Positions 15,201 through 27,200 are shown, numbered from the stretch's first letter. The stretch: DNA of 64,000 bases from a virus (IMGVR_UViG_3300025270_000010:1666-65665), one strand, 5' to 3'. Notes: generated by a model not told the origin, from the sequence alone. Numbers and translations are program-made.

Positions 15201-18200
15201 CGTCGATCTTCACCTTCTCGGCATCCTCGTCCTGCCTGTGCTTCGCATACTCGGTGGCGAGGTCGGCCTGATACTGGGCGTGTGCTGCATCCTTCTCCTT
15301 GTTCCGTGCATCCAGCAACACGTTGTCTGGGTCTGGGTCGATGTTGTCCGTGGTTCCGGTGGCCGCTTGGATGTCGTCCCACGGGATGTCATTGGGGTCA
15401 TCGTAGTCCTCCTCCAGAGCAGACTTATACTTGGAGTGGTATTCCTCGACGACCTTGTCGGTTGTCCTGATGAACGAGTCCCGCTGCCGGACGTAACGCT
15501 GCACGGTCGGGTCGGTCTCCCCCTTGAACAGTTTCCTCCACGTTCCCTTCACTTTCTGGAACGGTCCCTTCTCGATGAACGGCATCTCCAGAACCTCGAT
15601 GAACTGGCTGTAGTCCACGCCCTCCGAATTGAACTCGGACGGGAGGTCGGACGCGGCACCGAACGTGATGCCGGAGTGGATGAACGCGGGGCTGGCTGGG
15701 TTGAACCGCTCGCTCAGTGGGACGATCTCCCCCTCCGAGTCCAAGGTGACTGGTGCCACGCTCTTGACTAGGCTGGGGTTACGCAAGGCGAGGTTCATAT
15801 ACTCGTCCTTGACGAGTCCATTCGTTCTCTCTGCTTCCCCATAGCGGCTCTCCTCGGCGATCAACATCCCGTCGTATTTGGCCAAGATCGCGTCCGTGAC
15901 TAACGACTTCTCCCAGTAAACCCAGTAGCCATCTTTAATCGACGAGAGGTGAGCGTCCATGAACGTCACGCCAGCGGGACCGTGTGCCGTGTTGTCGTCG
16001 GTGAACCGCTGAATGATATCCTCGTCCGCCATGCCCTCGGCTTCGGGGCCGAGGTATCTGAGGGCGTAGGCCATAGTCATTTCGTCCATGAACTCTTCCC
16101 AGTTGACGCGTGGGTCGAAGAGGTTCATGTCTGATTTCGTGACCACCGAAATCATGGCGTGGCCACCTCCTCCCTCCTGCATCCCGATAAACTCCTCGGC
16201 TGCCCCCGCACCAGCCACTCTCGGTGAGAAGAACACGAGTCCTTTTTCCCCACCGTAATCGGAGCGGGTGGGGTCGAACGTGTCAAACACGGGGCGCTCT
16301 GTGCCAGTCTCAGCGTCAAACACGGTGCGCTCTGTGCCAGCGTCACGAGGGATATCCGTAGCGTGGGACGTTCCGTGATACATGTGTCTTTGCGACCACC
16401 CTGATATTTCTGCCGCCCTGTTCACGAGTGGTTGCAGTCGGTGTGCGATTTCAGCCACCGTGGATTCTGCCAAGCCTACGTCAGGCATCGCCTGAAACTC
16501 GCCCATTTGAGTCTCATACGCCTCAGTGTCTGGAGTAAACCCGAACCCCTCCTCGCCTACGAAGTTCCACAGGTAACCTTGCCGAACTTCTTCTGTCTGG
16601 GTTAGCCCCGTTAAGACGTCCCGCCTGTGTCGTCCACCGTCGCCCCGCCACGCCTGCGATCCCTTATCCAGAATATGTTTATACTCGTTAAGGATGCTGT
16701 CGTGTTCTTTCTGGATCTCCTCCAGTTCCTTGGTTTGCTCTGCGGTCAGTTCCTCGGCCCCCGTCCAACCGAACTGGGTCGTGATCCCTGAATACATGTG
16801 TGCGTCCTTGCCCTCTTCGAACCTCTTCGACGGCGGGATGAGGTTCCCGTCCTTGTCGTAGGTTCTGGCGTGTGCGGTCTTGATCTTTGCGGGGTCTCGC
16901 ACCGCGAGATTCATCCTCTCGTCCGGCTCCACCGCGTGTGTGCTGGAGTGTTCAGACACGAGTATCGCATCGTATCCCATGTCGAACACGGCATCGATGA
17001 CCTCCGGCCTCTCCCACCAATACCACGAACCGTTGGTGAGCTTGTAGTAGTCCTCTGCCTGTTCCGACGCCTTGACTGCGTGATCCGTCAGGTCTCGCGT
17101 TTCGGACTTGGGCGGGAGGTGGAATGGTTTGGCCAGTTCGTCAGCGTCATACACGGCCCCACCTGACAGGTGTCCTTCCCGCCTTAACTTGTTGAGAAGA
17201 TCCTCAACTAACCTCCAATCCTCACGGGGGTCAAAGATCTTGTCCGCCTTAACGAAGGTCGGCAGGACAAGCTCCTCTATCGCACCCATCATCCGTTCCT
17301 TACTCTCAAGGTGGCCCCGCTTCGAGTGTGCAAAAGACTCTGCGGACATCTCCCTCGGGGACAGGAAAATCAGACCAGTGGCCGGAGTGTAATGGTCCCC
17401 AGTGGCCCCCCTGTAAACCTCGAAAGGATACCTGTGCTTGAACTCGTGCTCATGCACAAACTTTTCTATGTTCTCACGGACTCCGCTTGGTAATGCGGAA
17501 GGGTCTTCCCACTTCTGCATCACGATCTTTGTCTTCCCGTGAGAAGACACCCTGACATGGGAGATGCCATGCTTGGCGAACAGGGCCTTCACACTCATCT
17601 TCCTAGCGGTGCCGTGATACATCGACGGGGCGTAGCCTCTCAGACGGGCTACTTCCAAGATCAGTTCGCGTTGCCGCACATCAGCTTGAGCACGTTCCAC
17701 GCTGCCTGCTTCCTTCCGCCGACTCTCAAGGGCGAAGAACTCTCGGTCGATCTCCTGCAACCGAGTGTGGAGGTTACGGGTTTTGACCCGCTCGTCCTTC
17801 GCAATCTGCGGGGCTTTCTTGACCCTGTCCAGCCAGCTTTGCTGTTCTGGGAAACCGCGTAGTTTTATGACGGCTGGTTCTTCTTCTTCCGCATCGACGC
17901 GGTCCCTGTCCCTACGGGTTCTGTCCCTGTGCGGCTCAAATACTTGCCGCAAGGATTCGCTCACGAGGGCGGCATCTTCGTCGCCCTCTCTGACAGTGAT
18001 ACCGGAAGCTAACTGTCCCGTCCTCTGCGTGGCCTCTCTCCGTGAGATCTGACCTAAATGTTCAGCCGCTTGTCTGGCTCGCTTGGTAGCTCTACCAGTT
18101 AGCTTGGCTCCTTTTCTTGTCCGCTTGCCCGAGATCCGCTGAAACCTCTGCCGCCGATCACGAAGCCCCTCTTGAACAGTGGGTGTGAATCTGGGAGAGA

Positions 18201-24200: not shown

Positions 24201-27200
24201 CCTCCAGTTCTACTGTCTGTTCGACCTTGAGGTCTTTCAAGGCGAGGACGCGGTCCTTGAATGCCTCGCCCCTTAACTCGGTAGCTTGTTCTGGGCTTAC
24301 GGCCTTGCCCTCACGGACCCGCTGCTCCAGCGCCCGTCGGACGGAGGATTCGCCAGCGACTTCAGCCCCCGCTACCTGTTGATCCATCTTCTTGTAGAGG
24401 GCCTCGGCCTCGTCGATCTGCTGGACGATCTCCCTGAACCCGACTTCAATCGCCTCGGCCTCTTCGGCGCGGGCGGGGTTGATGATGGTCTTCTTTTTGG
24501 GCGGGCGGGTTCCTTCAAATACGTCAGGCTCCGCGCCTTCGGTGCGACGAGGAGTCAAATTACGCACCGCTTGGTGGTCCGAGTTTTCAAGTGAGCTTGC
24601 TTCCTGAATCGGCAACTCCAGTTGGTGCATCAGGTTCCCCTTGGCCTCCACGGTCGTCGGGTCAGACCCAGAGACGACCGGAACGCTGCTGCCGAGAACA
24701 TTGTTCACGGCCCTTGCGGCGGAGTCGGGGTTGACTTTCTCCTCAAACAGCGCCTCCGCTTCTGGGTCTGGTGTTATGCCGGACGGAAGTTGTGTCCCTT
24801 CTTCGGTAGCTTCTGGCTCACCTCCCCTGAGCAGCGCCTCCTGTTCTTCGAGGGTTGGGACCACGGACGCCCGTGCGTCTTTCCGCCGCATGTCGGACAC
24901 TAACATGTTAACTACTTCCGCAGTTATCGGAGCGCCATTCTCGGTGAGGTCTGTGGACATCTCCTCCAGAACGTCTTCGTAGAATGAGGTCTTTTCCCTC
25001 TCCCGCAGAACGTCCGGTTGCAATGCGCGGAAGGTTCTTTGGACGAGGGGGACGGAGCCTCCCATAATCCCACCCAAGACGAACGCGTGCCAAGTCTGTT
25101 GGAGGCGCTCCAGCATGGGGGTGTCCTCGTGCAGGGCCGCGTCAGTAACAAGACCGTTGACGAACTCGTCGATGCCCTCCTCGATGCCCTCATCGAATAC
25201 GCTTTTGGCTAGGCCCTTGACCCCGCCGAAAGCGTATCGCTTCATTATCTTCTTAATCGATTTCTCTGCCGAACTCAACAGGTTGCCGCCCAGCTTGCCT
25301 GTGATCTCCTCGCCCGCTCTTTTCATCTGCTTGGTGCTGAGACCCCTGAGCAGGGCGTCCTCCATTCCACCGCGTCCGATAGCAGAGAACGCCGCCGTGA
25401 GGACACCAGTGAACGTGCCTGCCATGAGCATGGCCCCGAGCGCCCTGTCGTGGGCGTCGTCATCCGACACATCGGGGTTTTGCTTCAGTTGATTGTAGAC
25501 AGCCCCGTAAGTTGCCGAGCCAGAACGGGTGGCAGCGGGGATAAAGATGGCGGGGAGGTTGCCCAAGTGGGCGGAAAGTTTACTGTTATAAGCATTGAGG
25601 ATATCAATCGCGCCTTCTTTTGACCCCTTGATCAGGTTAGCCGCGAGCAAGTCTTCCGCCTGATCAACGGTGGACTTGGCTCCAGTCTTCCTAAACACGT
25701 TGGAAGTGATCGACTTGAACATACCCTTGGCGGTCATGCTGGCCGTGGTGGTTCCGCCAGCCTTGAGGGATGCGTAGGCCACACCACCAGCACCGCCAGC
25801 AGGGGCGGTCGCGGCTGCGAGGAGGGTAGTCGCAGCGATGTCAATCAGCATGGGGAACGCGGTCTCGGTGGCATCTTGAAGGAGGCCAAACTCCTCCCCA
25901 AAAACAGCGGCGAGTTGGCGGCGATCTGCATTCTTCTGGCTGACCGACGCCAAGTAATCTTGCGCCGGATCGAACCCGAACGCGGCTGGGATAGCGGCGA
26001 ACAACTGACCAACCCCATTCAAAAATGACATGCCAACTCCGGCAGCCCTCTCGGCGAACTCGTTGTAGTTGTCCTTGTCCGCGACGAACCCCTCAAGGAT
26101 CTTGTAGTCCTCGACGCCTGCGGTTCGCCCAACGATAAGGGCCTTGCCCCACTCATCGGACACGTTCGACGCAGATAGAAACGTGTCGAGCCGCGTGAAG
26201 TCGGAGCGAAGGTGCGCGATGCGCTGCTTGTTAAGCATGGTTTTAACTTCTTCACTAAGCTCGGGGTTTGCTGCGAGGGTCTTGTCGAAGACATCCTTAT
26301 TGACCATCGCCTGCATCGACATGGTCGGGAGGCCGTAGCCCCCTATCCGCAAATTTTTGCCCACATCGTCGTCGTCCTCGTCGTGGAATTCAAACATTTG
26401 CTTGTTGACCGCGTTGTCGAGAACCATCTGCTCGACCGCAAGCTCCATGTCTTCGGGACGTATGTCGAACTTGAGGGCATACTTCGACGCTATTTGCCGA
26501 ATGTCGGACCCCCTCGCCTCGTTCACCGCCTCGCGGCGGGCCTCCGCCTTGTCGATGTCTTCCCCCTGACCCATGACGCGGCCAAAGAAATTTTTAAGTC
26601 CGCGCCCAAGGTTGTCAGCCTTGTGCTCCAACCAGTCCATCGTGCTATATTCGGACTGGGCAGCTTCCGTGGAGAGCCCGTCGATCTGAATGTCGAAGTC
26701 TGCGTTCTGCTTGCGCTCCACTTCAAGGAGTCTGGTGGCCTGCGCTAATCTCTGGATGCGATACAGCGGGATACTGAACCCGTCGGGGGTGTCTAGCTGT
26801 GCCTGTGCGGCCAACGCATCCCCCATCGTAACGCCCCCTTCGGACGACGCCTTGAGCGCCCCCACAAGATCCATCTGCGCGGCGGCTTCGCCTACGATAA
26901 GTTGGCCGTTCGACAGGCGGGCCATCGGCAGTTCGCCTGCGTCCACCTTGACTTGCAGTAGCTGGTCCCGATTCCTGTTTACTACGTCGTCAGCCTTTTC
27001 GCGTAACGGTTGCAGTTCCTCGGCGTATTCGGGGGAGGGCGACTCGACGGCAGCCGCAAAATAATCATTCAGCGTCTGCTGATCTTCGCCGTGTTCCGGC
27101 AGGCTCTGCTGGAAGGTGCGGGCGAGTTGGTCGAATGTCTTGCCCCTCTGGATGTCCGCCATGCGCTGCTCCAGTTCTTCCGCGTTCGCTCCGTCCGGTT

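Follow-up and report, generated by a model that had tools for sequence, protein, structure and literature searches.

Polyvalent phage proteins join unrelated effector domains on a single giant chain, which raises the question of whether, and at which points, such a chain is divided into working units. When these proteins were defined, embedded zincin-like peptidases were proposed to release their domains, in a manner likened to the polyproteins of RNA viruses (Iyer, Burroughs, Anand, de Souza and Aravind 2017; PMC5512222). That article names no junction or cleavage peptide (the word 'linker' occurs 0 times in it), and full-text literature searches found no paper on a junction code in polyvalent proteins. 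The same question is posed by P0001, a predicted internal-virion/polyvalent polyprotein of 5,052 aa (~560 kDa) encoded on the minus strand, as are all its features given below, at 12253..27411 of a 64,000-nt stretch of DNA (hereafter the window). The window comprises bases 1666-65665 of the 65,665-bp genome of an uncultured marine phage (IMGVR_UViG_3300025270_000010, an IMG/VR record rated complete), 23% of which is taken up by this one open reading frame (ORF). A short peptide, L-x-S-G-I-T, recurs at the module borders of the giant protein, and on balance, with modest confidence, we favour the view from comparative sequence analysis that these junction peptides are cleavage sites for a reader encoded by the conserved part of the same protein (its chassis), most likely an embedded metallopeptidase.

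The junction peptide at the module borders

From its N-terminus the giant protein consists of block A, a block resembling gp16 of phage T7 that ends in domain Z, block Pm, an array of cassettes (E, F, C1 and C2) and block B. SGI occurs in it seven times, followed by Thr in six cases and by Gln in one. Junction 1, LPSGIT (Ser 877; 24772..24789), is the border between A and the gp16-like block; junction 2, LSSGIQ (Ser 1881; 21760..21777), is a weak variant in a low-confidence linker between Z and Pm; junction 3, LASGIT (Ser 2161; 20920..20937), marks the beginning of the variable array; junction 4, VSSGIT (Ser 2412; 20167..20184), is where similarity to several homologues stops; junctions 5, LASGIT (Ser 3136; 17995..18012), and 6, MYSGIT (Ser 3541; 16780..16797), are the borders between F and C1 and between C1 and C2, respectively; and junction 7, IHSGIT (Ser 3913; 15664..15681), separates the last cassette from B. 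The initial annotation had the seven copies at exactly these places, all inside the giant ORF; the 12-base ranges that it gave are those of the four codons S-G-I-T/Q, and the six-residue strings need 18 bases (e.g. 24772-24789). Its module lengths agree with those found here (876, 1004, 280, 251, 724, 405, 372 and 1140 aa), except that the N-terminal block of 876 aa had been omitted. The composition of the giant protein would predict 0.05 SGIT and 0.09 SGI[TQ], to be compared with the seven SGI[TQ] found; SGIT is its commonest 4-mer, and in 300 shuffles every 4-mer stayed below six copies. In the rest of the window, read in six frames, SGI[TQ] was seen only in three frames of 14-44 codons and in no other real ORF. 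The excess over expectation (7 versus 0.09), this confinement to a single ORF and the breakpoint statistics given below rule out a chance origin of the motif.

Apart from the query itself, 26 relatives were recovered from 5.8 billion proteins, and the nearest 19 (P0002-P0020) are 3,250-5,394 aa long; an IMG/VR scan with an alignment led by the 3,250-aa P0011 gave 68 related loci (25-100% identity). P0002-P0018 retain [L]-x-S-G-I-[T/M/S/Q/N], in numbers and at positions that vary. In a logo of 77 distinct contexts, Leu occupies position -2 in 47/77 (otherwise Val, Ile or Met), Ala position -1 in 31/77 and Thr position +3 in 59/77, and the stretch upstream is enriched in Glu, Gly, Pro, Asp and Ser. 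When homologues were compared with P0001 by BLAST, the aligned segment covering residues 1-2415 was found to end at the motif in five of them (and at 2416 and 2417 in two more), that covering residues 1-2163 to 1-2168 ended at the motif in four, and that running from 3909-3911 to 5052 began at it in four. When all pairs of P0001-P0018 are compared, an SGI site is no more than 10 aa away from 44% of the 752 internal segment ends; the null expectation is 2.4%, and none of 1000 randomisations exceeded 4.7%. Segments end most often at +3/+4 of the motif and start most often at -2..0, so that the element in common is L-x-S-G-I-T itself.

When these proteins were cut at SGI and the pieces clustered, they resolved into A (~876 aa), D (~1,280 aa), variable cassettes and then B (~1,135 aa), block D of P0001 being divided by the SGIQ site into 1,004 + 280 aa; architectures among homologues vary by whole cassettes amid conserved A, D and B. 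Both breakpoints and architectures bear out the original proposals that SGIT is a conserved junction at module borders and that the cassettes it bounds are gained, lost and exchanged between phages, and the homologue comparison indicates that the motif is the very point of that exchange. In cassette-less relatives (P0011 and L006) the A|D and Pm|B borders still carry the peptide, which suggests that the chassis parts themselves are probably separated by cleavage. Natural gene splits at the junctions were looked for and none was found. One locus (L071) has a lone in-frame stop at 7945-7947, within block B and not at a junction (ORFs 2032-7944 and 7948-10158, same frame); an error in the sequence, decay into a pseudogene or recoding of the stop could each account for it.

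Across ten related DNAs, 20 different 12-mers encode the 39 SGIT junctions, drawing on four codons for Ser (all TCN), four for Gly, three for Ile and four for Thr; such variation is what the initial annotation had already noticed on a smaller scale within the giant gene. The 60 bases flanking these junctions show 31% identity, which is the random level. This synonymous variation, and the finding described in the next section that junctions are rewritten to the local dialect, show that it is the peptide on which selection acts. A single 12-mer, TCAGGGATCACG, encodes 14 of the 39 junctions (in the window, those at 20920-20931 and 16780-16791), which is above the expectation from codon choice; the excess may reflect common descent of junctions or occasional copying at the DNA level.

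In an AlphaFold2 model of aa 1540-2175, built from 23 sequences (mean predicted local distance difference test score, pLDDT, 72), there are two folded domains (pLDDT 75-92, with Z at 85-92), and the sites at 1881 and 2161 lie in stretches of pLDDT 33-36 between folded domains (~33 for the linker of junction 3). For these two junctions the motif is situated in low-confidence stretches (pLDDT below 50) between domains, in keeping with the linker role first assigned to it. A disorder-propensity proxy is high at or beside the seven sites, with a mean best percentile of 0.88, versus 0.66 for the null (p = 0.004). The AlphaFold model of aa 2140-3160 (E+F) is too poor for fold searches (mean pLDDT 47, 61% below 50), and the location of its junctions in the lowest-confidence blocks adds little given the overall low pLDDT.

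Lineage dialects of the junction

SGIT is restricted to a clade that is ~48% or more identical among the IMG/VR loci. The clade of L017/L025 and L012/L013 has L-[A/G]-S-G-L-G-P in up to six copies; that of L020, L021, L023, L024, L026, L027, L034 and L054, which includes P0019 with zero SGI, has P-R-L-Q-S-R-[W/Y/F/I/L/V/H]-G-[A/S] (the LQSR clade); L044, L051, L059, L061 and L066 have [V/I]-R-[E/Y/F/H]-T-Q-A-G (the TQAG clade); and L036/L060 have G-L-Q-S-A-I-[G/A]. Further dialects in Pm-bearing clusters read L-x-S-E-L-G, x-S-Q-F-G, L-x-S-A-P, V-G-T-S-F-G and R-F-Q-L-S. Since a de novo motif finder with two wildcards gave many chance patterns rich in Ala, Glu and Leu, only dialects whose contexts were read have been retained. 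At the last border, before B, a core [L/V]-x-[S/T]-x-hydrophobic-[G/T] is found in most clades. The absence of the motif from equivalent borders of homologues had been named at the outset as grounds for abandoning the idea of a junction; SGIT is indeed absent from the other clades, but these have their own peptide at the same borders, which we count as support for a co-evolving reader.

The most telling cases are those in which the same cassette is found in different chassis. The LQSR clade has a cassette F of 53-63% identity in a chassis whose A, D and B blocks are 24-38% identical. F is missing from the intermediate clades and must therefore have been transferred horizontally; in the LQSR clade it carries LQSRxG at both flanks. 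ART-type cassettes in nine dialects end in ...RF[D/N], and exactly nine residues separate this ending from position 0 of the local peptide, which may be that of SGIT, SGL, SELG, SAP, SQFG, SRYG, TQAG or QLS. Pfam recognizes ART-PolyVal within a TQAG-bounded cassette of L044 and GNAT within an SGLGP-bounded cassette of L025. These comparisons indicate that the junction peptide follows the chassis and not the cassette, with the register preserved even where the neighbouring cassette is shared. That all junctions are in the dialect of their chassis is the pattern that a single co-evolving reader of these sites would produce, and not that of a recombination scar.

A C-terminal tail of ~45 aa is common to the ART cassettes (15700-15790 and 16810-16900, minus strand) and to a different cassette of L007/L010. 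Its consensus, N-[LI]-A-[VL]-R-[DN]-P...IKS...T-x-D-x-x-G-x-[IV]-[IV]-P-[LP]-S-x-R-F-[DN], stops nine residues before the junction, and the tail could be a shared adaptor or a piece of the recognition element.

Chassis, cassettes and candidate peptidases

An idea of the nature of the chassis came from domain Z (aa ~1540-1800), at the C-terminus of block Dn+Z (aa 877-1880; 21772..24783). Its HELIH motif (His1658-Glu1659-x-x-His1662; 22426..22440) lies in invariant alignment columns, an invariant Glu1738 in a downstream NVDEF motif is the candidate third ligand, and the first His is replaced by Glu in the clades of L036/L060/L005/L037/L045-48. Hidden Markov model searches of PDB matched Z to 9sfn_G ('Internal virion protein', E 7.3e-9) and 8vb2_A (the tetrameric ejection protein gp48 of PhiM1, E 0.0095), and 8vb2_A was also the top match in a fold search (Z-score 9.2, root-mean-square deviation 3.7 over 151 aa; next match 6.9). 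The aligned part of podovirus ejection proteins is their central domain, and that of Z takes in the HExxH helix. PhiM1 gp48 is the counterpart of T7 gp16 and is located inside the capsid (PMC11440229). By profile and fold, Z is homologous to this solved ejection protein, which lends weight to the zincin label first given to HELIH and indicates that the giant protein is built on a podovirus ejection protein. Podovirus ejection proteins (T7 gp16, PhiM1 gp48 and 9sfn) are, however, stand-alone proteins of 1,260-1,340 aa, not known as polyproteins or to carry effector cassettes, unlike the 5,052-aa fusion described here. Matches to SprT-like Pfam models were sub-threshold in a test for zincin domains (10 of 16 members, best E 0.0035); the Pfam MPTase-PolyVal, MuF and LPD models had no match in P0001, and no SLT or lysozyme family indicative of a lytic transglycosylase was found by Pfam in the whole giant protein at E <= 0.1, although a divergent domain of this kind may have escaped detection.

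Block Pm (aa 1881-2160; 20932..21771), the most widely conserved block and a possible second zincin, always immediately precedes the cassette array; when 1.84 billion representative proteins were searched with its profile, 196 clusters (50% identity), nearly all of giant proteins, were found to carry it. Its EEIAH (Glu1976-Glu1977-x-x-His1980; 21472..21486) is part of an invariant N-E-E-x-x-H (1975-1980), which aligns with HExxH in the TQAG clade, L036/L060, L042/43 and two contigs of a metagenome-assembled genome (MAG). The gp16-like block is wholly absent from the TQAG clade, and L036/L060 have EExxH in Z and HExxH in Pm; each of the clades with a recurrent dialect for which both motifs were tabulated (SGIT, SGLG, LQSR, LQSAI and TQAG) has the canonical HExxH in Z, in Pm or in both. 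Z, with its complete motif in this phage, and Pm, which is universal and adjoins the array, are both candidate cutters. A Pm profile had no significant match among PDB sequences, and Foldseek with the Z+Pm model found nothing in PDB at E <= 0.001 (the weak rows being MATCAP, 4l7a and oligoendopeptidase F). Z and Pm are not regarded as paralogues here, profile-profile comparison showing no similarity (probability 0.5%). One Pm-bearing protein, P0145 (3,597 aa), consists upstream of its Pm-like match mostly of regular repeats, many 111 aa apart (24 pattern matches), an architecture very unlike that of the cassette arrays.

Blocks A (aa 1-876; 24784..27411), which is present in all clades at 23-91% identity, and B (aa 3913-5052; 12256..15675) complete the chassis at its N- and C-terminus. 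Neither belongs to a known family, with nothing in Pfam and nothing significant by profile against PDB sequences. The sole match of B among GenBank phages (26% identity) is in Pseudoalteromonas phage vB_Pun_Y3, which might serve as a laboratory model for this block; in that phage (OR779980.1, 24147-37521) the B-like region has a gene of its own, of 1,027 aa, which follows a 3,421-aa polyvalent gene annotated 'DdrB-like ParB'. Two contigs of a Porticoccaceae MAG (PCCK01000077.1 and PCCK01000080.1) encode distant relatives with a B that is 30-32% identical and a Pm with HExxH, and there are thus hints that part of the family has marine gammaproteobacterial hosts.

As for the cargo, cassette E (aa 2161-2411; 20179..20931) was first labelled a kinase, a label that stands as a lead from a protein language model (ESM Atlas, 0.91-0.95 to PI3_PI4_kinase, HipA_2 and LepB_N clusters), pointing to a PI3/PI4-kinase or HipA-like kinase, and has no Pfam or PDB sequence match behind it. 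Cassette F (aa 2412-3135; 18007..20178) contains DUF7178 (aa 2482-2674; Pfam PF23802, E 1e-9), and the glycosylase-like domain once suggested for it finds no support, DUF7178 being its only Pfam match and PDB giving none. Cassettes C1 (aa 3136-3540; 16792..18006) and C2 (aa 3541-3912; 15676..16791) are ART-PolyVal-like paralogues: C2 scores 0.90 to ART-PolyVal clusters in ESM Atlas, a Pfam ART-PolyVal in homologue P0013 (aa 3588-3763) maps onto it, and Pfam finds this domain in cassettes of P0013, P0020 and L044 corresponding to C1/C2, all of which backs the ART label originally proposed. Several unrelated effector or enzyme domains (DUF7178, ART-PolyVal and the kinase-like lead) are thus found on one polypeptide, and a GNAT domain is recognized by Pfam in cassettes of relatives. 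An extra HExxH (LLHEAAHA, LTHESGHA) lies within an array cassette at aa ~2531 of L009, ~2780 of L016 and ~2570 of P0013, so that further zincin-like modules may be among the swappable cargo. Outside the giant gene, the large terminase gene (31306-33093) is in the same strand block, which, together with the homology of Z to capsid-internal proteins, speaks indirectly for virion association. Four ORFs of 165, 527, 273 and 318 aa with no PHROG or Pfam match occupy the interval between the two genes (27443-31309, minus strand).

Proposed cleavage and its alternatives

If the junctions are cleavage sites, the gene would encode a polyvalent internal-virion (ejection) polyprotein with a chassis made of A, the gp16-like block with Z, Pm and B, carrying between Pm and B a series of cassettes that can be exchanged and hold one enzyme each (kinase-like, DUF7178 and two ART-PolyVal). 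At all borders L-x-S-G-I-T, set in a flexible linker, would be the recognition site for a factor that co-evolves with the chassis, and this factor would most likely be a protease embedded in the same protein, either Z in the SGIT clade or Pm. Cleavage, during head assembly or after ejection, would yield the parts of the ejection apparatus (A, B and the gp16-like block, to which Pm may remain joined) together with free effectors. In clades with a canonical HExxH in Z, the +2 residue is always hydrophobic (I; L; W/Y/F/I/L/V), which would fit cleavage just before this residue by a zincin whose S1' pocket is hydrophobic, and the scissile bond may thus be S-G|I-T, S-G|L-G or S-R|W-G. Docking of a 35-aa peptide around Ser 3136 onto Z with zinc scored 0.00 ('no answer') and weighs neither way. 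A recurrent short border peptide that co-varies with virus lineage, as found here, is what one expects of a protease-processed viral polyprotein.

Several observations nevertheless weigh against cleavage by an embedded metallopeptidase. Neither Z nor Pm falls in any peptidase family in Pfam, and the fold matches of the strand-plus-helix of Pm, which are minimal zincins and the peptidase domain of ArdC, are within noise (6sna, Z-score 6.2; 2ejq, 5.8; 3e11, 5.7; selecase, 5.1). To our knowledge, EExxH, the form present in Pm here, is not an active zincin motif, and we know of no T7-like homologue of Z that acts as a protease or is processed. Short cassette-less lineages with only an EExxH Pm still have an x-S-Q-Phi peptide (Phi, hydrophobic) at Pm|B, so that the peptide is not cleanly linked to the HExxH motif; the clades, moreover, are a small and non-independent sample. 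In the LQSR clade the A|D border is without the motif, and the site at 1881, which reads SGV, SGL, SAI or SNV in homologues and is never a swap point, does not track the clade dialect. Finally, the search of the GenBank phage collection found no match to the window DNA, no match to the Z+Pm protein and no cultured relative.

Among the alternatives, the one that survives best, unlikely as we consider it, is that the peptide is left uncut and serves as a linear motif docking to a chassis domain or to a part of the virion (capsid interior, portal or core), thereby organizing or folding one tethered multi-enzyme chain for packaging and ejection. A binding partner would explain the chassis-linked dialects and the selection on the peptide equally well, and delivery without processing is on record for the N4 vRNAP and for certain polyvalent proteins of plasmids (PMC5512222). 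However, the peptide is located precisely at all exchange points, flanking even single small enzymes, repeated identical docking motifs on one chain would have no obvious role, and the nearest precedents for border motifs (viral polyproteins, MARTX toxins and T4 internal proteins) are cleavage sites. It is rather improbable, next, that the peptide is cut by something else, either another phage protease such as a head-maturation enzyme or a host protease after ejection. The lack of a peptidase family for Z and Pm and the core-like peptide at Pm|B in lineages without a canonical HExxH would both fit such a cutter, and a protease might go unrecognized among the many window ORFs with no family match. 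On the other hand, no prohead-protease or other protease family was found in the 20 window ORFs scanned with PHROGs and Pfam; the motif is in no other real ORF, including the guessed scaffold at 58328-59545, whereas a head-maturation protease should cut some of these proteins; and host proteases are conserved, which would make clade-specific dialects needless. That the motif is a mere DNA recombination scar or hotspot, providing microhomology for cassette shuffling with no role as a peptide, is very hard to sustain, since the exchange of cassettes at the motif and the recurrence of one 12-mer in 14 of 39 junctions are outweighed by the 20 different 12-mers for SGIT amid flanks of random-level identity, by the need of homologous recombination for more than 12 bases and by the rewriting of the junctions of F and ART to the clade peptide in other chassis, in the same register, which requires selection on the peptide.

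Cleavage at the junctions by a chassis-encoded reader, the reading we retain, invites comparison with known systems. Like polyvalent proteins, P0001 is a giant phage protein that joins unrelated effectors (ART-PolyVal and kinase, with GNAT in relatives) and zincin-like motifs, and its gene is near packaging genes. What sets it apart from those described in 2017 is an explicit border code with a fixed register and clade dialects on a chassis resembling T7 gp16; this code is new, whereas the hypothesis of processing by zincins was known. MARTX is a giant delivered toxin whose effectors lie between short linkers that are cut, after Leu, by its own inositol-hexakisphosphate-activated cysteine protease, and its effector repertoire is shuffled by recombination. 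The conserved chassis with a central swappable effector array in a giant protein is shared with MARTX, but no cysteine protease domain of that type turned up in the phage protein, the two are unrelated in sequence, and the effectors are carried by a phage and not by a bacterial toxin. In phage T4 the prohead protease processes head-internal proteins that have a capsid-targeting leader, cutting at L/I-x-E, and in phiKZ and SPN3US the corresponding enzymes (gp175/gp245) cut at S/A/G-x-E. T4-type internal proteins, such as the ART Alt, are likewise packaged and ejected effectors trimmed at a short phage-specific site; there, however, further head proteins such as capsid and scaffold share the site and the protease is a head protein in its own right, while here the motif is in one ORF only of the 64-kb window. 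A more recent parallel is gp47 of phi24B, a polyvalent protein of 2,811 aa with a metallopeptidase domain, which was detected by virion proteomics, is absent from the cryo-EM map and was proposed by its authors to be an ejection protein; its domains (LPD5, LPD1, LPD38 and MuF-C) differ from those of P0001, and the text consulted reports no junction motif in gp47 and no processing of it (bioRxiv 10.64898/2026.04.10.717836).

A wider generalization can be offered only tentatively, and we regard it as doubtful: a whole family of uncultured marine phages (at least 196 Pm clusters) might produce both its ejection apparatus and its injected enzymes from a single polyprotein. The cuts would be made at a code common to the family, [L/V]-x-[S/T]-x-hydrophobic-[G/T], which each lineage spells in its own dialect, and the reader would be Pm, as a new, mostly EExxH, zincin-like autoprotease; these proteins would then be the phage counterpart of MARTX toxins. 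Whatever the fate of this idea, cleavage of polyvalent proteins has been proposed since 2017 without known sites, and the present family offers seven sites in P0001 and at least eight lineage dialects. Because the sites are explicit and alignable and cassettes have been swapped among them in nature, the cleavage hypothesis is directly testable. The junctions also provide a rule for dividing giant 'hypothetical' phage proteins into functional units and a route to new anti-host enzymes, which are to be sought between the marks. If cleavage proves true, a single precursor would give rise to a podovirus ejection apparatus together with its cargo, which would represent a new assembly logic for tailed phages.

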